Below the pieces are notes generated by a model. That model did not search any database and had not been told where the DNA came from. It saw only the letters and a list, made by a program, of their open reading frames with translations. The translations under genes were made by a program, and so were the position numbers. From assembly GCA_000146465.1 (NCBI GenBank), contig CP001951.1: 64,000 bases of DNA. One strand, 5' to 3'. Of the stretch, positions 1,079 to 52,188 are shown piece after piece. The stretch's first letter is position 1, and every line of letters begins with the position of its first letter.

Positions 1079-1495
1079 CTACTTGGCGGAAACTCCGAAG
1101 AAGAAGACAAAAGCTGTTGAATACACCGAGTAGTATATGAAGAACAGGATTGATACAACGATGTCTGGCGTGGTCATAGTGAAGCACTCTCTGCAGTTCT
1201 TGTATCCCATCCTCATTACAAACACATTATTCATGATGATGAAGAATGCCAGGAGGTTCATTATCTTTGCAATAACATGGAGAGCTTAAATTAAAGATAG
1301 CACTTACCATTTATGATTCTAAAATACAGCTTTCCTTTCTTTGCCATTGGTTTTACAAGAGACAGAGCTGTGGAATATGTTATTATAACTATGAGAACCT
1401 GGCTTCCGTAGAAATATCTTGGTGCTAGGGATGCAGTGAGGATCAGTCCGAGGAGCGATGAAATCTTTGAATTAGTAGGGCAAGGCACTTACCAT
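1079..1495 (-). CDS. small four-TM membrane protein, three exons: complement(join(1493..1495,1308..1464,1079..1284)), 121 aa
   Basis: ATG 1495..1493 is followed directly by GTAAGTG (intron 1465..1492). Exon 2 ends AAATG|GTAAGTG (intron 1285..1307). Splicing joins track ORFs 1291..1488 and 1079..1261 in frame (..RIIN-A-LHVIAKIMNLLAFF..). Confidence 0.6.
1285..1307 (-). other. spliceosomal micro-intron 2 (23 nt): GTAAGTGCTATCTTTAATTTAAG
   Basis: Same GTAAGTG / TAATTT / AAG architecture. Removal fuses exon 2 to the downstream ORF in frame. Confidence 0.55.
1465..1492 (-). other. spliceosomal micro-intron 1 (28 nt) of membrane-protein gene: GTAAGTGCCTTGCCCTACTAATTCAAAG
   Basis: 5' GTAAGTG directly after ATG; CTAAT branch-like motif 6 nt before the 3' AAG; removal keeps frame. 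Confidence 0.6.
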
Positions 1496-1668
1496 TTCCA
1501 TCTTGTCTTTGAACATCATTGTGGTCTGGGGTTGGGTGTTTAGATGGTTTGTTGATGCCAAGAAGGGAGGCCATGGTAGCTTGATGGGCTAGAGACAGCA
1601 AGGGTTCCCTTGGACACATTGGGAATGGATGGCTAGAACGGAGAAGTAAAAAATATTTCGGGATCCCT

Positions 1669-5994: not shown

Positions 5995-7089
5995 CTAACC
6001 TGGTAATGATACAGAGGATCTCCCCCCAATCATAATAAACTCGCCACTCTTCAACTTTATGGAGCAGAAGCTCAAGGTCTTCTTCAGAAAAGAAACATAA
6101 TCATGTGGAAGTCTGGACGAGGTAAGGTCCAAATATCTTAGAGAACCTTTGAAGTGCATGATGACCTCATAGAAAGAAGCCCCATCAAAAGTACATCCAA
6201 CAAACCCAAGCCCAACCAAATTTGGGTATCTCAAATATACCGTCTTGAACATCCTACTGTCGATCTCCGCCTCTGTCACATGAAGCAGCCTCAAATTAGG
6301 AAGACTTTCCCTCATACACTTCAAGTCTCTTCCTCCAACATACATTATCTCTGCCATCTCGAGACCAAGGTTGGTAAGGCACTTCAGAAAGCCCATGCAT
6401 CGTACAGCGTTCACAAAAGAACACAGTCTTACATCCAAACAGACCCCTTCATCAATAATCTTAAACCATACCAACTCCCTTGAGATACACAGGTCAACGA
6501 AGGATTGAAAGTCAATTCCCATGTTGACAAGCTCTATCTTCTTCAATTTTGGCATCTCTTGGAGCTTTTTCATAAGGCCTTCTCTCCACTCATGGCATCC
6601 TAAGACATCAACATTCACTAGTGACACACTTACTAGTGACCCTACACCAAGAATATTCATAAGATCCTCATACGCCACAGTAGTGTCCCTCATAACTATT
6701 TCCTGCAGCACAGTGTCTATGTTGCTCCTCATCTTTACATTTGCAACTTTTAGAATGCTCAGCTTTCTAATGCATGTATTGTTGATCGAAGCCAAATCAA
6801 AAGAACACGAATCACAGACCCTCAGGACCCGAAGGTTGATAAAGGGGTGGAGGTCGACGTCAAATGCAGGCCTTGCCTCATAATACACCTTCCTCTCATA
6901 TGGTTTCCTCCACGGCGAAAGAATGGGTACTTCCCTTGGAGGCACAGATTTGCACAGAGCCTTTAGACGTCTATCGTATTTTCCAATCAGATATACCAAG
7001 TCCCTGGGAATCTGGAACTCAGGCTTGCATGTCTCTCTTGGAATCAAGCGCTTCTTGTTCCCGATCTTAAGATCAGCTATTCTTCTCAT
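5995..7089 (-). CDS. leucine-rich-repeat protein (F-box/LRR- or RNI-like), hypothetical
   Basis: Repeated L.xL..L.V.xC motifs along 364 aa; true ATG at 7089. Confidence 0.35.
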   Translation of the reverse strand: MRRIADLKIGNKKRLIPRETCKPEFQIPRDLVYLIGKYDRRLKALCKSVPPREVPILSPWRKPYERKVYYEARPAFDVDLHPFINLRVLRVCDSCSFDLASINNTCIRKLSILKVANVKMRSNIDTVLQEIVMRDTTVAYEDLMNILGVGSLVSVSLVNVDVLGCHEWREGLMKKLQEMPKLKKIELVNMGIDFQSFVDLCISRELVWFKIIDEGVCLDVRLCSFVNAVRCMGFLKCLTNLGLEMAEIMYVGGRDLKCMRESLPNLRLLHVTEAEIDSRMFKTVYLRYPNLVGLGFVGCTFDGASFYEVIMHFKGSLRYLDLTSSRLPHDYVSFLKKTLSFCSIKLKSGEFIMIGGRSSVSLPG

Positions 7090-7148
7090 ACCTCAAGGGA
7101 TCTCCTCATCGGCATATTTCAGCATTCTTGCTTCTCCCCTGAAGCAGA

Positions 7149-7499
7149 ATGAGTCTAAAAGAGTCTGGAGTAATGGTTATGACAATAGGAGTGACTGTAT
7201 TCCTTGCTGGTGCCATTCTTCTGATGGACAGGGCGCTCATGATATCCGGGAATCTCCTGATAATCATAGGAATTGCTCTTCTTGCCCGGTCCAGGATGTT
7301 CTCCTTTCTGCGCCCAGAGAAAATGCAAGCCATGGTGATTTTTGGAATGGGAATTCTGTTTCAGGTTTACAAGCTCCTTGTCTTTGGCTTTTTTCTGGAG
7401 GTCTTGGGCCTGTTCCTTCTTCTGAAAGACAGCATCCCCACATTCAGGACTGTGCTAACAACCTTACTCTTTGGAAAGTTGCAGAAACTTATAAAGTAA
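7149..7499 (+). CDS. GOT1: Golgi transport protein GOT1-like, 4 TM
   Basis: 116 aa with four hydrophobic helices. MDRALMISGNLLIIIGIAL and EVLGLFLLLKDSIP match GOT1 motifs. Confidence 0.6.
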   Translation: MSLKESGVMVMTIGVTVFLAGAILLMDRALMISGNLLIIIGIALLARSRMFSFLRPEKMQAMVIFGMGILFQVYKLLVFGFFLEVLGLFLLLKDSIPTFRTVLTTLLFGKLQKLIK

Positions 7500-7578
7500 A
7501 GATCTCGATTAAACACCAACGAATTTATTTCATTTACGAGGAAGACCAGAGCCCATCTCTGTGTTTCTTTTTGGATTC

Positions 7579-9366
7579 CTACTCCAATGAAGAACTGCTC
7601 TGAAGTTCTCCCCTTAAGATTTTCAGCCCATATGTATTGAGCATTCTTATAGCATCTACTTCCTCACGGTTGCATCGGTCTGCATCCCATCTATGCTTCC
7701 TCTTGAATATCTCAAGAACTTTCCCAAGACACCGATAGGCCTCCTTTACATCTATAAGCCCAATCATCAGCCTGTTGCAGAGCACATCGCATATCCTGAC
7801 AGCCATCTCGTTGTCTATGCAGTACTCCACTTCTTCGACAAGGTAGGTGTATTTCTCTGATAGGTGATCTTTCTTCTTCCCCCTTCTTCTATACTTTGCA
7901 AGCTTCAAAGCCATTGTTCCGTAGAATCTCGTAAGCCTCTCTGCAGTATCCTTTCCCACCCCTAGTTTCCTTTGGATCGAGACATATGTGTCTTCGGAAT
8001 ACCCATCACTCCCAAGTATCTGAACATATTTCGTCACACAAGGGCCCTTTGGCTTCAATGAAAACTCTCGGATTGCCAAGTCTATGGCATCTTCTGCTAT
8101 TTTTCTATATATCGTCCACTTCCCTCCTGTGACCGTTAGAAGTCCATTCTTCTCAATCTTGACAAAATGCTTCCTAACAATAGAACTTGTTTCCGAAACC
8201 TCGTCATCTTTGACCAGCGGTCTTATTCCTGTCCAGATAGCAGAGACCTCGTCCTTGACCAGCTTTAGGCCCTGCGAAGTGTATGCCCTAACCTCATGCA
8301 TCAGAAACTTTAAATCCTCCTTTGTTGGAGATGGCGACAACTCATTCTTTGCCTTGATGTCCGTGGCCCCCACAAGAGTCTTCCCCATCCATGGCATGAA
8401 AAAGGCTATTCTGTTGTCTCCTGTAAGAGGGTCCAGAAACCCCATTTCCTTGGGTGCATATTCCTTTGGAATAACAATATGTGTTCCCGAACTCTGGGAT
8501 ATAATCTCTCCCGTGCTTGAATCGCTCTTCTTCCTTAGATCATCTGCAAAGCTGCCTGTGCTATTGATAACCCCAAGTCCCTTAATCTCCATTTCCGAGC
8601 CTGTAATCCCGTCTTTGCATCGAACTCCCGTAATCTTTCCACCCGAGCTTATCAAGGATTTCACAGACAGGTAGTTCGTTGCCACTGCTCCATGATAAAC
8701 TGCAGTCATCACTAGCATCACATTGTTTCGAACATCGTCTTGCTGCCCATCAAAATAAACCATTGCTCCACAAAGATTCTTCTTGTTGACATGAGGAAAT
8801 ACATCTATAGCCTCCTTCCTTCCAATAAAATAGCTTCCTCCCAATGATTTCAGCCCTGAGATCCAGTCATAGAGCTTCAGCCCAATGTAATAGTAAGGAA
8901 TAAGTATCCTGCTGTATACCGGAACCATTATCTTGATGCTATTTGTAAGATATGGCGATATTCTAAACATGGTACTTCTTTCTTCCAACGCTTGCCAAAC
9001 AAGCTTGTACTGAGACCAATCTAAGTTACTAACTGCACTTGCAAGATACCTTACTCCACCATGGACAAGCTTGGTCGATTTCGAACTAGTTCCTGACCCG
9101 AAGTCCCCTGCATCTACCAGAGCTACTTTCAGCCCCCTCGTTGCTCCGTCAAGGGCACATCCCGCCCCACTGCTCCCTGCACCAACTATGATCAGATCAA
9201 ACACCTCCGACCGAAGTCTCTCCATCATGGCCTCTCTTGTAGGCACCTCCCAGTTCTTGCAGGGCTTCCTGATGCATTTCAGCCTACCCATTACAAATAT
9301 CTTCTTGTAGAGATATCTGAAGGCCATAAGTACCGAAAGAAACAAAACCACCAGTGCAGCCAGCAT
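7579..9366 (-). CDS. GUT2: FAD-dependent glycerol-3-phosphate dehydrogenase (mitochondrial/mitosomal type)
   Basis: N-terminal TM helix, then FAD motif DLIIVGAGSSGAGCALDGATRGLKVALVDAGDFGSGTSSKSTKLVHGGVRYL. Confidence 0.85.
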   Translation of the reverse strand: MLAALVVLFLSVLMAFRYLYKKIFVMGRLKCIRKPCKNWEVPTREAMMERLRSEVFDLIIVGAGSSGAGCALDGATRGLKVALVDAGDFGSGTSSKSTKLVHGGVRYLASAVSNLDWSQYKLVWQALEERSTMFRISPYLTNSIKIMVPVYSRILIPYYYIGLKLYDWISGLKSLGGSYFIGRKEAIDVFPHVNKKNLCGAMVYFDGQQDDVRNNVMLVMTAVYHGAVATNYLSVKSLISSGGKITGVRCKDGITGSEMEIKGLGVINSTGSFADDLRKKSDSSTGEIISQSSGTHIVIPKEYAPKEMGFLDPLTGDNRIAFFMPWMGKTLVGATDIKAKNELSPSPTKEDLKFLMHEVRAYTSQGLKLVKDEVSAIWTGIRPLVKDDEVSETSSIVRKHFVKIEKNGLLTVTGGKWTIYRKIAEDAIDLAIREFSLKPKGPCVTKYVQILGSDGYSEDTYVSIQRKLGVGKDTAERLTRFYGTMALKLAKYRRRGKKKDHLSEKYTYLVEEVEYCIDNEMAVRICDVLCNRLMIGLIDVKEAYRCLGKVLEIFKRKHRWDADRCNREEVDAIRMLNTYGLKILRGELQSSSSLE

Positions 9367-23008: not shown

Positions 23009-23480
23009 TTAATAAGTAATTATCCACTTCCCCCCAACTCTTGTGATCTCTTCTTTTGCTGATGGCGTGAAATACCTGGCTTTGACAACAATCGGCCTTT
23101 CCAAAGGCAGCTTTCCTCCAATAACAATGTGATATCCAAACTCCCTGACATCGATCACAGGAACCTTCTCAACGTTATCCAGGAACTCGTATCTTTGCTC
23201 CTTTGGGATCATCCCCCACAGCCTTGCAGAGCTGATTGGGCGGGCATAGTTCGAGTTCTCCTTCCTGTGGTAAACCCTCATTCCTCTCTTTCCATGGTAG
23301 TCCGGATGGAATCTTGTGAAAAGAGTCTTCATGTGGCTGAATCCTCCTGCCAGCCCTCGGCCTCCAGAGTGTTTTCTATGCTTTCCTACACGTCCATGTC
23401 CGTGCGATACATGCCCTCGCATCTTTCTAGTCTTCTTAACCTTTTCTGCCTTCAAATTAGCTCAGATAGCCACTTACCAT
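23009..23480 (-). CDS. RPL27A: 60S ribosomal protein L27a (uL15), two exons: complement(join(23478..23480,23009..23449))
   Basis: The spliced product [37 protein letters not shown].. is the canonical uL15 N-terminus. Track ORF starts at a TTG inside the intron/exon 2. CCCTGAA sits before the ATG. Confidence 0.8.
23450..23477 (-). other. spliceosomal micro-intron (28 nt) directly after the RPL27A start codon: GTAAGTGGCTATCTGAGCTAATTTGAAG
   Basis: ATG|GTAAGTG. CTAAT branch-like motif 6 nt before the 3' AAG. The spliced frame restores a canonical protein. Confidence 0.75.
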
Positions 23481-23635: not shown

Positions 23636-25009
23636 ATGCACTCCACACACAAGAAGATCAAGGTCAGCATAAGGCTAAGGCCCTCTACAGGGAACAGAGA
23701 GATATGGAAGACCTCTGAAGACGGTTTGTGGCATATCCGTGGGGAGAGGAGAGTGAAATACAGCGGGTTCCAAAGCATCCTGTCGAACATGACAAACGAA
23801 GAGGTTTACAAGCTGTGTGTGCAGGAGGAGGTTTGGAAGTTTTTGAACGAAGAGAACTGCACGGTGTTTGCATATGGACAGACAGGCTCTGGAAAGACAT
23901 ACACAATGCTGGGAGGAGATGAGGAGGGGATTATAAAGCTGGCAATAAGAGATGTTTTGAAGAAGAGGTCTGTGGGGATATCGTATCTAGAAATTTACAA
24001 CGAGAAGCTCTTTGATCTTTCGAACAACAACGAGGTTCAGATGTTCAGTGTTGGAAACAAGAATGTGATCTCGAACTTGTGGGTCGAGCATGTGGATAAG
24101 TGGGAAGATGTTGTGCCTTTTATTGAGAAGTGTGAGAAGAACAGGAGGTTTGGAACTACGGAGTTCAACACAAAGAGTAGTAGGTCACATACTGTGGTTC
24201 AAGTGACATACAGCAGCAACAACCGAGTCCGGACTTTGAATATGATAGACCTTGCAGGGAGCGAAAGAGCAAGCCGATCGAATGACAGGAGGAAGGAAGG
24301 GTCCTTTATTAACAGGAGCCTTCTTGCACTCTGCACGGTTGTCAACAACATAGGAAATGGGAAGTATCTGGGGTTTCGGAACTCGAAACTGACAAGGGTG
24401 CTTCAGCCGTCATTGGACGGACTTACGAATCTGATTGCAATCTGCACGTTGTCACCTTATGAAGATTGTGTTGAAGAGTCTGTAAGTACATTGAAGTTTG
24501 CGGCAAGGCTGTGCAATCTCGAGCTGAAGACGGAAGAGATGCAGATATCAAGCGATGGGGATGGAAGATGTGGAGGAGATGGATTGGAAGGAAGTTCCAG
24601 ATGCGAGGTGAAACACAGATGCTGCAGAAAGTTTCATCCTGAAGTTAGTAAAGAAACAAGCGATGTTCTGGAGAAGACAGAGTCCATGACCTTTGAGAAG
24701 TACTTTGAAGGATACGGCTTTTCGGAAGCTCCTGGGCTGGAAGAGCATAGAGAGCATGACAAGGTGTGTAGTGAGAAGGATTCTGTAGCAGGGATACTCC
24801 GGACCTTTGGAAGGGTGATTATGGAGAATCTGGAGTGGAAGGTAAAGCTTATGGAGGAGCTGAACATAATTAACAACGATAGAATACATTTGCTAGAGAG
24901 AATGGTAGGAGAGTTACTTGGTAAGAACCCATCAAGAAGAATGAATGAGATCTTCATACTCGAGAAGTACAGGTTCAACCTTCGTAGGAAGATGGTTGGA
25001 AGAAAATGA
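23636..25009 (+). CDS. kinesin-like protein (N-terminal motor domain)
   Basis: P-loop GQTGSGKTY, switch I SSRSHT, switch II DLAGSE, neck VSTLKFA. Track start 23585 is GTG; ATG at 23636. Confidence 0.8.
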   Translation: MHSTHKKIKVSIRLRPSTGNREIWKTSEDGLWHIRGERRVKYSGFQSILSNMTNEEVYKLCVQEEVWKFLNEENCTVFAYGQTGSGKTYTMLGGDEEGIIKLAIRDVLKKRSVGISYLEIYNEKLFDLSNNNEVQMFSVGNKNVISNLWVEHVDKWEDVVPFIEKCEKNRRFGTTEFNTKSSRSHTVVQVTYSSNNRVRTLNMIDLAGSERASRSNDRRKEGSFINRSLLALCTVVNNIGNGKYLGFRNSKLTRVLQPSLDGLTNLIAICTLSPYEDCVEESVSTLKFAARLCNLELKTEEMQISSDGDGRCGGDGLEGSSRCEVKHRCCRKFHPEVSKETSDVLEKTESMTFEKYFEGYGFSEAPGLEEHREHDKVCSEKDSVAGILRTFGRVIMENLEWKVKLMEELNIINNDRIHLLERMVGELLGKNPSRRMNEIFILEKYRFNLRRKMVGRK

Positions 25010-25040
25010 TTATGCACTGTTGATTTTACCCATAGAAGGA

Positions 25041-25466
25041 ATGGGACCGAAGATCAAAACACTTGTATTTTTGAAAGTAATGGTTCTTGTTATACTTCTG
25101 CACTTTCTTCCTGTGGTCTTGAAGGAGATAGGGCTAAAGAAGAGGGTGGAAATGATGAAGAGGGACTTCAATAGAAGGCTTCTCGAGGGAAGTGAGAGCT
25201 TGGAGAGGCTTAGGATGCTGAAGACGCTAATAAACAATGCAAGATACTGCAAAGACGGAGATATACCGCTGGACGGTTCCATGGCCGAAACCAAGAGGGC
25301 TTATGAAGGGCTAAGGGTATGGAGCGACCCTGTTTTCCTGAGGCTTTCGAATATATACAATATTTCTATTTTTTTTCCTGTGTTTGCGCCTGTGGTGATA
25401 CAGAGCATAAAGATTCTGAGGTATAGAGACTCTTGGGGGAGCCGGGGGGAGAAGGTTGAACCATAA
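25041..25466 (+). CDS. hypothetical membrane protein (N-terminal TM)
   Basis: ATG at 25041 preceded by cccauagaaggaATG. The track ORF 24945.. overlaps the kinesin 3' end and begins at a non-ATG. Confidence 0.3.
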   Translation: MGPKIKTLVFLKVMVLVILLHFLPVVLKEIGLKKRVEMMKRDFNRRLLEGSESLERLRMLKTLINNARYCKDGDIPLDGSMAETKRAYEGLRVWSDPVFLRLSNIYNISIFFPVFAPVVIQSIKILRYRDSWGSRGEKVEP

Positions 25467-26279: not shown

Positions 26280-28085
26280 ATGATTCTAGATGAGATTGTG
26301 AAGGAAGCGGCAGCGCTGCAGCTGAGGAAGGAAGACGAGAATACATGGTCTCGGGTGAACGATGTACTCATGAGGCTTTCCGGGGCAGTTGTGGGGCCGG
26401 AAGATGTGCGAAGAGTGTTAGAGAGTGTTTCCGACCTGATTGTAAGGTCGATGCAGAGTGACAGATCGAGGCTTGCAGGAACAGCCCTTGGATTTCTCAA
26501 GAACTGCATTTGCATCTTGGGAAATGAGTTTGGGATGGCAGGGCAATATCTAGTGCCTCTAGCGAAAGTATGTGGAAAGAGCAGTAAGGTGTTTTATTCA
26601 AGGGGAGAGGAAGTGCTTGTAGAACTTTGTAAGAGAGTGAATATTAAGGGACATGCAAGGTTTTTTAGCGAATACTGTGGAAGTGCCAATAAGAATGTTA
26701 GGCTTGCTATTTTCCGGGGGATTGAAGCATGGGGGAGTGAGTCTGGAAAGATAGAAGGATTGGAGAATCTTGTTATAAAGGGAAGAGAAGATGCATTTTC
26801 GGAAGTTCGAGAGGTGTGCAAAAGAATGATGGAGAAGTTCAGTATTGGGGAGAGAAAGGAAGGATGCTTTAGAAGACAGCGTTTGGAAGAGAGTCTTGAG
26901 AGTGGGGTAAAGAAAGGGCCTGTTAGAATGGCCAGGATGCCGGTGCGAGGGGGATATGGAGGAATGGAAGGAATCGGGGCAAGAGAGATGGAAAAGAAAG
27001 AGCTTGCACCCAAGTTTTCTCCGGCTAGAAAGCAAACAAAAACAGGAGATAAAGACTATGACAAGATAAGGGAGCTTTCAAGACAGGTCAAGGACATAGC
27101 CGAAGACATAAGGCCGAATGTGGGGGCTGAGAAGAGCTCAAGCGGTAGAATAAGAACCAAGATAAAAGAGATGTTCTCCAGAGGAAGTGATAAGGCAGGG
27201 ACTGTGTATCCAGAAAGTAAGGTTGAGATACCAAAGGAGGTGATGAACCATGAGGATCTAACTCCAGTGAGGTTGGACAAGTATCTCAGTAGATATCGTG
27301 AAGAGTATGGAAGGCTTATTCCCAAGAATATAACTGGAGTTAGCAATGGATTTGAAGTTGAGGATACCGAGCTAGGGGAAGAATTTCTAGAAGCCAAAGA
27401 AGTCTCTGATGAAGACAAGGCGAGGATTGGAGAAACAAAGGAAGAAGATAAGCTTAATGGGTCTTGCGAAGAGAAGAAGGAAAGGATTGTTGTTGGGAAT
27501 GAAAGCTTTGATGAGGAGATGGGACATGATTTAGAGGGAGGAGATGAAGTGTGTGCAGAGCTTGAGATCGGAGAACTTTCGAAGAGCTTAGCGAACATCT
27601 CGATCAATGAAGGAGATGTGGAGGATAAACCACATTCCGATGGAGATGGGATGTTGTCGGAGGCTTCTGGAAATCCCTACGAGAATCTTGTTGAAGGACA
27701 AGAGATGGAAAGCTCTCTTAAAGAGTACACCATAATGGATTCTGGGAAGCTAGAAGAACACAAGGAAAATAACAGGGATGAATCCCGGCTTTGTAGAGGA
27801 TCTGGGGCCTCGATCGGAGAGTCAACAATTTCGATTGACTCGGAGGTTGAGAACCAAAGAAAGGAGAGAAAGAAGGGATGTAGGAATGCTCTTGAGATGA
27901 TGAAGGGAAATCGATTTGCAGGGTTTCTTGAGTTGAGTGAAAGCAGCGAGGAAGAGACTGTATTTTCTAGAAGGCAGGGGGAAAGGAAGGAAGGAGTGGA
28001 GAAGCAAGATGCAGACAACACAGGCGACTTTACGGCGATGGACTCCCTTGTGGAGGTTAGAAGAGGGGTTTTTAGAAAGAAGTAA
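26280..28085 (+). CDS. hypothetical protein: N-terminal armadillo/HEAT-like helical region plus long acidic Glu/Ser-rich disordered C-terminal half
   Basis: 601 aa ORF with a clean ATG. The antisense serine-rich ORFs here are shadows. Confidence 0.45.
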   Translation: MILDEIVKEAAALQLRKEDENTWSRVNDVLMRLSGAVVGPEDVRRVLESVSDLIVRSMQSDRSRLAGTALGFLKNCICILGNEFGMAGQYLVPLAKVCGKSSKVFYSRGEEVLVELCKRVNIKGHARFFSEYCGSANKNVRLAIFRGIEAWGSESGKIEGLENLVIKGREDAFSEVREVCKRMMEKFSIGERKEGCFRRQRLEESLESGVKKGPVRMARMPVRGGYGGMEGIGAREMEKKELAPKFSPARKQTKTGDKDYDKIRELSRQVKDIAEDIRPNVGAEKSSSGRIRTKIKEMFSRGSDKAGTVYPESKVEIPKEVMNHEDLTPVRLDKYLSRYREEYGRLIPKNITGVSNGFEVEDTELGEEFLEAKEVSDEDKARIGETKEEDKLNGSCEEKKERIVVGNESFDEEMGHDLEGGDEVCAELEIGELSKSLANISINEGDVEDKPHSDGDGMLSEASGNPYENLVEGQEMESSLKEYTIMDSGKLEEHKENNRDESRLCRGSGASIGESTISIDSEVENQRKERKKGCRNALEMMKGNRFAGFLELSESSEEETVFSRRQGERKEGVEKQDADNTGDFTAMDSLVEVRRGVFRKK

Positions 28086-28209: not shown

Positions 28210-28394
28210 TTAGATGGCAAGTCGACCGCTCTGGGCAGTAAGCGCGGGTCTAGAGATCTCCTTGTGGGTAGTTGGGGAGTCTGTAGGGACTCTGCACCTA
28301 CCATTAAAGCGGAGGGGAACGCATGAGGGCGGAAACGCAGCAATGAGTACCTCCTGCAAGGCAGAGTCTCCAGCCTTCCGCGCCAGTCCTTTTT
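28210..28394 (+). ncRNA. candidate signal recognition particle RNA (7SL/scR1-like), Pol III transcript
   Basis: Helix-8 signature GCG-GAAA-CGC-AGCA (28329..28342) with flanking internal loops. Nested helices GCGGAGG/CCUCCUGC and GGGACUCUGC/GCAGAGUCUC; GCGCGGG/UCCGCGC stem. T5 at 28390..28394; TTTAAATTG ~25 nt upstream of the putative start. The 5' end is uncertain. Confidence 0.45.
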
Positions 28395-28460: not shown

Positions 28461-29894
28461 ATGCTTGAGAACATAAGGATAGAGCCGAAGATGAGCTACA
28501 GGAAGATAGTGGGGGTCAATGGGCCTCTTGTGATAATGGACAACATCGGGTTTCTAAAGTATGCAGAGATAGTCAGTCTGACGCTTCCTGATGGAAGTGT
28601 TAGGCAGGGACAGGTTCTGGAGGTGTGTGGAAAGAAGGCTGTGGTCCAGGTGTTTGAGGGGACGTCTGGAATAGACATCAAGGAGACACAGGTTACATTT
28701 ACAGGAGAAACATTGAAGATGGGGATTTCGGAAGACGTGCTGGGAAGGATATTCAACGGGAGCGGAAAGGTCATTGACGGAGGCCCGAACATCATTGCCG
28801 AAGACTACTTCGACATCCAGGGACAGCCCTTGAATCCATACTCCAGGATATATCCCGAGGAGATGATCCAGACTGGAATATCATCGATTGATGTGATGAA
28901 CTCGATTGCCAGGGGACAGAAGATTCCTATATTCAGTGCATCGGGGCTTCCCCACAACGAAATAGCTGCACAGATATGCAGGCAGGCAGGGCTTGTGAAG
29001 AGAAAGGACTCGATAGATAGTAGTGACGACAACTTTGCAATAGTTTTTGCAGCAATGGGGGTGAATGTAGAGACTGCAAATTTCTTCCGGAACAGCTTCG
29101 AAGCATCTGGATCGATTGGGAGGACAGCATTGTTCCTGAATCTGGCCAACGACCCCACCATCGAAAGGATCATCACGCCACGACTGGCGTTGACGGCAGC
29201 AGAATATCTTGCATATGAGAAAGAGAAGCATGTTCTTGTGATCATGACAGACATGAGTTCGTATGCAGATGCGTTGCGTGAGGTTAGTGCTGCAAGGGAA
29301 GAGGTTCCAGGAAGAAGAGGATATCCAGGATACATGTATACAGACCTTAGCACGATATACGAGAGAGCAGGGAGGCTGGAGGGAAGAAACGGATCTATCA
29401 CCCAGATCCCGATTCTAACAATGCCAAATGACGACATAACGCATCCGATTCCAGATCTCACGGGATACATCACCGAAGGACAGATTTACGTTGACAGGCA
29501 GATGCACAACAGACAGATCTATCCACCCATAAATGTGCTTCCATCATTGTCTAGGCTGATGAAAAGCGCAATTGGGGAAGGGATGACGAGAAAGGACCAT
29601 GGAGATGTGTCGAACCAACTTTATGCAAAGTATGCAATAGGCAAGGATGCCCAGGCCATGAAAGCTGTTGTGGGTGAGGATTCTCTTTCTTTGGAGGACA
29701 AGATCTCGATAGAGTTTTTGGAAAGGTTTGAGAAGGAGTTTATAAGCCAGAGACATAACGAGCTTAGGACAGTGAACCAGTCCCTGGACATTGCATGGGA
29801 TCTCCTTCGAACGTTTCCACGAGAAATGCTTAATAGAATCCCATCGGACATATTGGATGAGTTCCATTCTGTGGCGCCCTCGAGATCGGAGTAG
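28461..29894 (+). CDS. VMA2: V-type H+-ATPase subunit B
   Basis: [43 protein letters not shown]; high-confidence family match along the full length. Confidence 0.9.
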
Positions 29895-36883: not shown

Positions 36884-36954
36884 GGGGGATTATCTTAGTG
36901 GTAGAGGATTTGCTTCGCATGTGAATTGCCCGGGTTCGATTCCCGGATCCTCCA
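36884..36954 (+). tRNA. tRNA-Ala (anticodon CGC)
   Basis: Cloverleaf folded by hand. Anticodon loop UUCGCAU. G3:U70 Ala identity pair; discriminator A; B-box GGTTCGATTCC. T5 Pol III terminator 5 nt downstream (36960..36964). Confidence 0.85.
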
Positions 36955-49846: not shown

Positions 49847-51397
49847 TTAAGAAACACCGTTGAAAGAGTCCACCACGGATTTATATGCCAAATACAGGCG
49901 GTCTTCCCCATGGCTGCTTCCAATGTTATTCACAATCTGGTCGAAGGAAAAGATGCCTTCTGACATAAGTATGAAATTCTCCACAAAACATCTTTCATTG
50001 TCTGGAGGGCACAGAAAGATCTTAAGATACTTTTCAACAACATCTATCAGAGGAAGAACACTCACTTTTGTCCTTAGGTATCGCTTTATCTCTGCAGTCT
50101 CGAGTAAAAGAGCCTCGGAAATCCTAGGTGTGACTTTGATGGAGTAGATTCCAGAAAAGACATGAGAAACCACGCTCTCCACCAATGTGATTCGGATATC
50201 CTCGTATATTCCCTCTATCTCTTCATTCATTATGTCTTTGTCTAGGATCTGTATGACTTTCCTAGAAAGACCCTCTGGAGCAGAAAAGTCCAGGCCTAGG
50301 AAGTAGCTTGAGAGAAAATCATCAATAAATGTGTTTTGAAGTCTTTCGGCCTTTCTCATTTGCATGTGAATCTTTGGAATGTCCTCTTCTACTTCTGACT
50401 TTTCTATGATTTGGTCCAAAAAATCTAGAGCAGTTTCTCTGATGTAAAGCATAGTGTTTAGTACAATTATAGACTCGTTCAGACATCCAGGGAGGCGTGT
50501 TCTTTTGATCAGAAGACTCAAATACTCGTCGAAATAATGTACGAGATGCCTATGCGCAGACTTGTCATTAAGGTACTCAACCCTTTTAAGAATCTTTTCT
50601 ACTCCACGAAAGAAGTCCAGAAACCCCGAGATAATGCATAGTTTAACATTCTCTTGGTTGAGGTCGGACTCCATAAGCTCTTTGAAGGATCTTTCTAGAT
50701 ATATCTCGATGTTTGGCACAAACAATGAGGATAGCATTGTCTTGTGTGGACAGAAGGTTTCCTTTTGACTCAAGCCTTTGGATTTACATGCTCCATCTTC
50801 CAGAGATGTAGACTGTACACATGCACTGCATCCCTGTTTTTCAAACAGCTTCCCAAGTCTCTTCTCACATCTGATCGTTGCATCAAAAGCTTCTATGAAA
50901 TCCTCTTCATCGACCTCGTTGTAAAAGAAGTAATCACATACCCGTTGCTTCGTCATAACATAGTACTTGAGCAATATTTCTCGTGGTAAGCTCCAGTCGT
51001 CTGGGACATGGGAATATTTGAGGCTTACTCTGCTTATGCTTTCTTCAATCCATCCAAGACAGCTCTTTAATGAAGATAGTCTTTGAAAGTTACAATTCAA
51101 GAACTCCTGGTAACTCACAGAACATAGTGATCCTAGGTAAGAAATCGCCAACGATTTCATCCTGGCCTCAAAGCTTTCTCCCTGCAGTAACGTGATGTTG
51201 ACCAGTGGCTTTGGAATTCCCTTTTGCTCATGGACACATCTTCTTATTTCTTCCTCTATCGAGGACTGAAGACCTTCCAAGTCATTGGTGCACAGCTTGT
51301 CTCTAAGAGATAGCTTTTCCATTTCTTCCCTGATAATATTGTAAATCTCCTCGTAGTTTTTCGAGCTGTGCAATGTCCTCAGCTCAGAAGCATGCAT
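49847..51397 (-). CDS. hypothetical helical protein (possible vesicle-tethering complex subunit)
   Basis: 516 aa, all-alpha by composition; no confident family call. Confidence 0.3.
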   Translation of the reverse strand: MHASELRTLHSSKNYEEIYNIIREEMEKLSLRDKLCTNDLEGLQSSIEEEIRRCVHEQKGIPKPLVNITLLQGESFEARMKSLAISYLGSLCSVSYQEFLNCNFQRLSSLKSCLGWIEESISRVSLKYSHVPDDWSLPREILLKYYVMTKQRVCDYFFYNEVDEEDFIEAFDATIRCEKRLGKLFEKQGCSACVQSTSLEDGACKSKGLSQKETFCPHKTMLSSLFVPNIEIYLERSFKELMESDLNQENVKLCIISGFLDFFRGVEKILKRVEYLNDKSAHRHLVHYFDEYLSLLIKRTRLPGCLNESIIVLNTMLYIRETALDFLDQIIEKSEVEEDIPKIHMQMRKAERLQNTFIDDFLSSYFLGLDFSAPEGLSRKVIQILDKDIMNEEIEGIYEDIRITLVESVVSHVFSGIYSIKVTPRISEALLLETAEIKRYLRTKVSVLPLIDVVEKYLKIFLCPPDNERCFVENFILMSEGIFSFDQIVNNIGSSHGEDRLYLAYKSVVDSFNGVS

Positions 51398-51570
51398 AAA
51401 CTATGATGATTCTCACGATTTTAGGCCAGAACTGAAACATTTGTTTCAGACAGGACTCTGAATGAGAAAAAGGATGGAGAAGTCCGTCCTGGCATTCAGA
51501 CAGAAGGACTCCTCTACCGAAGCGATAAAAGGCAAAATGTTTTTCTAGTCTTACAAAAACAAGCCTGGAG

Positions 51571-52188
51571 ATGGAGAATTTGCTGGAAGATGACTCGGAG
51601 AATTTACTAAGGATGAGTCCAGATGAGTATTGGGTAGGCGACTTCATGCACAGAAGAGAAAACCGCAGCATAGTCCGTGTTCCAGACGAGTTTCTTGAAG
51701 ATCGATTTAACATTATTGGACTGGACAGGTACATAAAAGACCTCGAAAAGGTATATAGTTCGATACTTGACAAGGGACCAAGGAGTAGTTTTCAGGAGGA
51801 GTCTTCTCTATACTATCTGATACATCAGAAATACATCTTCACAAAGCCTGGGCTTGAGACTGTTCTGGACAGGGTGATGAGCAAGGAGTATGGAGCATGT
51901 CCAAGAATAGGATGCAAGTCAGTTGGAATGATCCCCATTGGGCTGAGCGACAGGCCTGGAGTTTCGTCAACAAAAGTCTATTGCCACTGTTGTGTGAGTG
52001 TGTACGAGGCCAGGGGAATTCTCCGGCTTGTAGATGGGTGTGCATGGGGGAAATCGTTCCCGCATTTCCTAATTTTGACTCACTCGTACCATTTCCCTTC
52101 AGGAAAGTGTGAGGAGTATGTCCCAAGGATATACGGCTTTCGGATATGCGCCCACGACGACAACGACTCTCTCTCCGAAGACAACTAA
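51571..52188 (+). CDS. CKB: casein kinase II regulatory subunit beta
   Basis: CPRIGC...CHCC zinc motif, YGACPRIGCKSVGMIPIGLSDRPG, DGCAWGKSFPH. Confidence 0.85.
   Translation: MENLLEDDSENLLRMSPDEYWVGDFMHRRENRSIVRVPDEFLEDRFNIIGLDRYIKDLEKVYSSILDKGPRSSFQEESSLYYLIHQKYIFTKPGLETVLDRVMSKEYGACPRIGCKSVGMIPIGLSDRPGVSSTKVYCHCCVSVYEARGILRLVDGCAWGKSFPHFLILTHSYHFPSGKCEEYVPRIYGFRICAHDDNDSLSEDN

Follow-up and report, generated by a model that had tools for sequence, protein, structure and literature searches.

[quoted passage not shown] Their sequences, the restoration of reading frames on their removal, the conservation of their positions, the separation of conserved from diverging nucleotides and the spacing of their signals were observed directly, and splicing in E. 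intestinalis itself would follow by analogy with published work. Two of them interrupt the membrane-protein gene Eint_100755 and one interrupts RPL27A (uL15). The window is a piece of Encephalitozoon intestinalis chromosome X, as the spliced products of Eint_100755 and L27A are both 100% identical to E. intestinalis proteins (the former from E. intestinalis ATCC 50506). This microsporidian has the smallest known nuclear genome (PMC4355639), and in the window the G+C content is ~44% and long ORFs cover 93% of the sequence. The introns, exons and adjoining promoter signal are as follows.

1079..1284, minus strand: exon 3 of Eint_100755 including the stop codon
1285..1307, minus strand: intron 2 of Eint_100755, 23 nt, phase 1, GTAAGTGCTATCTTTAATTTAAG; its removal restores the frame, and it has the same position in six species; parts GTAAGTG-CTATCT-TTAATTT-AAG, putative branch A at 1291
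1308..1464, minus strand: exon 2 of Eint_100755, 157 nt
1465..1492, minus strand: intron 1 of Eint_100755, 28 nt, phase 0, after codon 9 (ATG), GTAAGTGCCTTGCCCTACTAATTCAAAG; parts GTAAGTG-CCTTGCCCTA-CTAATTC-AAAG, putative branch A at 1472
1493..1519, minus strand: exon 1 of Eint_100755, MMFKDKMEM, its start ATG kept in six species
23009..23449, minus strand: exon 2 of RPL27A including the stop codon (Pfam PF00828, E=3e-10; 100% identical to annotated E. intestinalis L27A)
23450..23477, minus strand: RPL27A intron, 28 nt, GTAAGTGGCTATCTGAGCTAATTTGAAG, directly 3' of the initiator ATG; parts GTAAGTGG-CTATC-TGAGCTAATTTGAAG, putative branch A at 23457
23478..23480, minus strand: exon 1 of RPL27A, the initiator ATG alone, the same layout as in E. 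cuniculi ribosomal-protein genes (PMC6349667)
23481..23498, minus strand: ribosomal-protein promoter signal AAAAATTTTATCCCTGAA, with AAATTT-like and CCC-like motifs, abutting the RPL27A ATG and providing the 'AA' of AAATG

Removal of the two introns from Eint_100755 joins its three exons into an uninterrupted 390-nt coding sequence, and removal of the RPL27A intron joins the initiator ATG to the body of the gene to give a 444-nt coding sequence. When left unspliced, both reading frames reach stop codons within a few codons. Both this recovery of a conserved reading frame and the GT...AG ends are as expected of U2-type introns. At 129 aa, the spliced product matches the annotated 'uncharacterized protein Eint_100755' with 100% identity and has orthologs in E. 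hellem (71% identical) and E. romaleae (68%). Since the 129-aa product arises only after splicing, the introns are already annotated in GenBank. The intron sequences quoted in the initial annotation are present in the window exactly as given, on the minus strand.

For RPL27A, the 5' exon consists of a very short leader plus the AUG, and 5' UTRs shorter than 7 nt have been reported in E. cuniculi (PMC2803860). The promoter signal AAAAATTTTATCCCTGAA matches the E. cuniculi L27A entry AAAATTTTTATCCCTGAA (PMC2803860 supplement). E. cuniculi, E. hellem and E. romaleae all retain this signal, and its TATCCC core is also seen in Ordospora pajunii and Vairimorpha bombi. L27A is listed among the experimentally confirmed intron-containing genes of E. 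cuniculi (PMC3486916 supplement), and the position of the intron directly after the initiator ATG is the usual place for a ribosomal-protein intron in Encephalitozoon. In E. cuniculi, introns are ~25 nt long and usually lie directly after the initiator ATG (PMC6349667).

Conserved and diverging positions were distinguished by aligning 17 orthologous copies of the two Eint_100755 introns and the RPL27A intron. GTAAGT is invariant in 17/17 copies and is followed by G at +7 in 15 of them; TAAY, with its second A 6–7 nt from the 3' end, is found in all 17; and the final AG is likewise invariant and preceded by A in 16/17. Overall, the 5' splice site reads G^GTAAGT(G), where the caret marks the exon-intron boundary, and the branch motif reads (C/T)TAAYT(T/C). 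The individual branch motifs TTAATTT, CTAATTC and CTAATTT are of the TAAYTT/CTAAYTT type of Encephalitozoon short introns. That of intron 1 ends in C in four Encephalitozoon species and in O. colligata, and the Ordospora-like genome has ATAACTT. The three introns of 23, 28 and 28 nt, with orthologs of 23–29 nt, fit the ~22- to 30-nt Encephalitozoon class. Thus, introns in unrelated genes do share a 5' splice site, a branch motif and a 3' AAG in one common frame, as initially noted; all three begin AAATG^GTAAGTG and end TAATT-N2-3-AG.

The similarity, however, does not extend to the whole intron. Between GTAAGTG and the branch motif lies a spacer of 6–12 nt that varies among orthologs in both sequence and length, and the initial description of whole-intron conservation was therefore overstated. 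Its proposal of a constraint on the spacing of splice signals applies to the signals and the 3' spacing, but the spacer is free. Similarly, the distance from branch point to 3' splice site, described as fixed at ~6 nt, is tightly constrained but does not take a single value: intron 2 has 6 nt, intron 1 and the RPL27A intron each have 7 nt, and all 17 copies have 6–7 nt. The signals take up 17–19 of the 23–28 nt of each intron, so two such introns will be ~70% alike without shared ancestry. Consistent with this figure, non-orthologous introns are 66–79% identical in each of the four Encephalitozoon species.

The signals suggest how these introns would be recognised. The complementarity of U1, U2 and U6 was judged against published motifs. 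Encephalitozoon U1 is reported to carry ACUUACC (PMC5499648), to which the 5' splice site G^GUAAGU is exactly complementary, and this bears out the U1 check that had been proposed; by analogy, G^GUAAGU(G) would base-pair with the ACUUACC at the 5' end of U1. No U1 gene was seen in the window, where every ACTTACC match lies inside an intron or an ORF. The 6- to 12-nt spacer is unconstrained. By analogy with the yeast UACUAAC, the branch motif (C/U)UAAYU(U/C) may be recognised by the GUAGUA box of U2, with its second A as the putative nucleophile. The acceptor would be the first AG 3' of the branch motif, the 3' AAG setting the branch adenosine 6–7 nt from the end. Comparable features are established in E. 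cuniculi, in which the branch consensus is CTAAYTT, TAAYTT occurs in 13/13 introns and the 5' splice site is strong (PMC2483917), and in which 37 introns of 22–76 nt with strict motifs have all been confirmed by RNA-seq (PMC3629993). E. intestinalis and E. cuniculi have the same intron set, and the introns are more conserved than synonymous sites (PMC4355639). Short E. cuniculi introns are spliced at <20% on average (PMC6349667); therefore, much of the transcript pool may stay unspliced.

The combination of signals exceeds chance in the window. The pattern ATGGTAAGTG occurs three times, compared with 0.08 expected occurrences, and none of 100 shuffles reaches three. Plain GTAAGT, in contrast, is at chance level (14 observed, 16.9 expected), and the other 11 GTAAGT sites are all either antisense to ORFs or within uninterrupted ORFs. 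The published microsporidian intron finder GTA[AG]GT[ACGT]+?TAATT[ACGT]{0,4}AG (PMC3486916) matches exactly the three introns and nothing else in 64 kb, with 0.65 matches expected at lengths up to 80 nt and 0.19 at lengths up to 30 nt. A relaxed scan, in which one mismatch was permitted in the 5' splice site, followed by TAAYT and then AG, returned 12 combinations at 10 distinct 5' sites, compared with 58 in mononucleotide shuffles; the seven additional candidates all fall where no intron is required. This apparent depletion of cryptic introns was rejected, as it disappears under a second-order Markov null (11 +/- 4) and arises because TAA is depleted in coding DNA.

The initial annotation had further suggested AAATGGTAAGTG as a genome-wide intron finder. 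In the window, and likewise in the ~85 kb of orthologous sequence that was fetched, it indeed matches true introns only, but it would miss known introns, including the E. cuniculi RPS10 5'UTR intron, which follows GAAG, and O. colligata intron 1, which follows AAATC. Nor is motif-based finding a new tool, since both string and regular-expression finders have been published (PMC3486916; PMC3629993, citing Lee 2010). A regular-expression search was used to scan Trachipleistophora (PMC3486916), and motif-string searches had brought the number of introns counted in E. cuniculi from 16 up to 34 (PMC3629993). The age of the three introns can be read from orthologous loci, which were fetched and aligned from Encephalitozoon, Ordospora and Vairimorpha genomes; the E. 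cuniculi locus was reached via Ndc80, the 90%-identity clusters of fibrillarin and Rrp8 being without E. cuniculi members.

Introner-like elements are intron families that have multiplied recently in certain algae and fungi and place near-identical introns in unrelated genes; they are similar over their full length and differ in presence or absence between close relatives. A recent gain of this kind, whereby the E. intestinalis lineage acquired introns through duplication or reverse splicing of one of them into the other genes, would explain the near-identity of the introns, including the spacer word CTATCT: intron 2 and the RPL27A intron agree at 22 of 28 aligned positions, this 6-mer among them, and AAATG precedes all three introns. 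However, E. hellem, E. romaleae, E. cuniculi, Ordospora colligata and a further Ordospora-like assembly have both Eint_100755 introns at identical positions, and in-silico splicing yields intact proteins of 129–131 aa in all six species. In RPL27A, E. cuniculi, E. hellem, E. romaleae and Vairimorpha bombi (23 nt, GTAAGTTGAAATTATAATTTTAG) have the intron after the ATG, and Ordospora pajunii and one Logan assembly lack it (the three loci outside Encephalitozoon were compared at positions 590-640 in two and 598-630 in one), a pattern that indicates an old intron with lineage-specific loss. In contrast to introners, then, only the signals match, the spacers are unrelated and the positions are common to Encephalitozoon, Ordospora and Vairimorpha. 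Recent gain by copying, one of the two explanations initially offered, is thus refuted by positions shared as far as Ordospora (Eint_100755) and Vairimorpha (RPL27A), and we give it practically no chance of being correct. The word CTATC(T), the one element beyond the signals that is common to intron 2 and the RPL27A intron, does not alter this conclusion. It could in principle be a functional element or a product of gene conversion between E. intestinalis introns, since its distance from the 5' splice site is almost equal in the two introns, and the chance of a shared 6-mer among three such spacers is ~0.010 (nominal, within the window). Yet the match was picked after the fact, and ~2.7 pairs with a shared spacer 6-mer are expected among 36 introns. 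CTATCT is found in no ortholog: the intron 2 spacers there are TCAACT, ATCACT and ATCATT, those of RPL27A are GTTGCTTGAG, GTGTATGAG and GCGTCTGAG, and the two sets differ from each other. The E. romaleae RPL27A spacer GCGTCTGAG is also a small change away from that of E. intestinalis. On these sequence comparisons we consider a functional or conversion-derived CTATC(T) exceedingly unlikely, and the word, which had been listed as a shared intron element, is read as an E. intestinalis-specific, probably coincidental match.

The exon side of the 5' splice site offers a further similarity. ATG does precede all three introns, as initially described, but AAATG was counted before only two of them and in fact precedes all three; the published U1 motif ACUUACC does not account for it. 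In Eint_100755, the codons abutting the two 5' splice sites, GAA (before ATG^) and AAT G^, are both among the only 8 codon-invariant columns of the 42 in which the amino acid is identical in six species (p ~0.03). According to a published table of sequences upstream of E. cuniculi ribosomal-protein genes (PMC2803860 supplement), 14 of 18 genes with an intron have AA before the ATG, vs 19 of 53 genes without one (Fisher p=0.0027). The exon-side AAATG (positions -5 to -1) therefore seems mildly constrained, a post hoc observation that is confounded by promoter architecture; the sites concerned are 1493-1498 and 1308-1311 on the minus strand. Both the shared AAATG and the ribosomal-protein counts would also agree with an ancient common origin, whereby the short Encephalitozoon introns descend from one founder inserted at AAATG^G proto-splice sites and are both homologous and constrained, and homology across unrelated genes has been proposed for long microsporidian introns (PMC6349667). 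However, nothing is shared outside the functional signals and the spacers are unrelated, AAATG may equally be start-codon context or extended splice-site recognition, and at such an age homology is indistinguishable from convergence on signals. We regard a single ancient founder as very unlikely. A somewhat better, though still doubtful, possibility is that the exon side of AAAUG^GUAAGUG either takes part in splice-site recognition in Encephalitozoon or is a relic proto-splice site. Recognition might involve a pairing with U1 that extends to its nucleotides 3' of ACUUACC, or base-pairing with loop 1 of U5. If true, an AAAUG preference would add a small detail to the picture of 5' splice-site selection by a minimal spliceosome where the site lies only a few nucleotides from the mRNA cap. 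A constraint on the exon-side AAATG may already be contained in Lee et al. 2010.

The reading preferred here, that these are ordinary short Encephalitozoon introns, agrees with what is known of related systems. The short introns of E. cuniculi (Katinka 2001; Lee et al.; 2013) have the same length of 22–30 nt, GT-AG ends, GTAAGT, and CTAAYTT near the 3' AG, and they are distributed in the same way, directly after the ATG in ribosomal-protein genes and elsewhere in other genes. Orthologs of all three introns exist in E. cuniculi, with no difference of substance. Outside the microsporidia, the intron-poor Yarrowia, Trichomonas and Giardia likewise have a strict branch consensus of the WCTRAYN type, anchored a few nucleotides from the AG and without a polypyrimidine tract (Irimia and Roy 2008, PMC2483917). 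The distance itself is lineage-specific, the motif lying 2 nt from the AG in Yarrowia but 4 nt from it in both Trichomonas and Giardia (PMC2483917), whereas here the branch A is 6–7 nt from the intron end. Constrained branch-to-AG distances have been reached convergently in intron-poor eukaryotes (PMC2483917), and the 6- to 7-nt spacing is an instance of this convergence. The long Poly-A-binding/S23 intron family of microsporidia (Whelan et al. 2018, PMC6349667) also comprises similar introns with strict splice motifs in unrelated genes. Unlike the present introns, which are 23–28 nt long and have spacers without conservation, its members are ~76 nt long, contain a conserved internal stretch together with a predicted stem-loop, and have a hyper-extended branch point (PMC6349667).

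The initial observation is thus correct and non-random, yet it describes textbook properties of Encephalitozoon introns. The motifs, the branch-to-3' constraint, the post-ATG position and motif-based finding are all already known (Irimia and Roy 2008; Lee 2010; Heinz 2012; Grisdale 2013). Beyond correct annotation the result has little significance; it re-derives, from raw sequence, the published minimal-signal introns that are read by a drastically reduced spliceosome. The practical point is that introns of 23–28 nt need to be modelled if small genes are to be called.

Two of the orthologous loci bear on annotation. The E. cuniculi ortholog of Eint_100755 (CP091432.1, fetched-locus 1881-2501), which matches window positions 1079-1519, is intact and encodes 129 aa once its two introns are removed, but it is not among the called genes of CP091432.1. 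ECU10_0755 likewise has no entry in the 2013 E. cuniculi expression table. The uncalled ortholog is probably an annotation gap due to the two mini-introns. In E. romaleae, RPL27A (CP003529.1, fetched-locus 1944-2030) is annotated as a 137-aa protein starting from an internal Met, whose true ATG, together with a 27-nt intron, is located upstream of the annotated start.

The Eint_100755 product is a four-helix membrane protein, for which AlphaFold predicts a confident four-helix bundle (pLDDT 87.7). It has no Pfam match, and its family has an invariant NVFV..G..C..C motif. An exhaustive profile search recovered 14 small or fragmentary relatives, and the protein is restricted to microsporidia. 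A comparison of the predicted fold with the PDB gave no match at E <= 0.001, the best matches being generic four-TM proteins.

Several other features of the window were also recorded. Long ORFs overlap by 65–167 nt at 6923-7089 (5995..7089, minus strand, with 6923..7603, plus strand), 24945-25009 (23636..25009 with 24945..25466, both plus strand) and 51571-51734 (51384..51734, minus strand, with 51571..52188, plus strand). These could be true gene overlaps or could result from over-long start-codon choices. An Rfam search of the window returned no snRNA gene; only an SRP RNA and one tRNA were found. The SRP RNA match (28240-28384, plus strand; Rfam RF00017, model positions 101-249) scores 70.7 bits against a gathering score of 70 and sits in a 376-bp gap between the ORFs 26280..28085 and 28461..29894. 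The sole tRNA of the window is a tRNA-Ala(CGC) at 36884-36954 on the plus strand.
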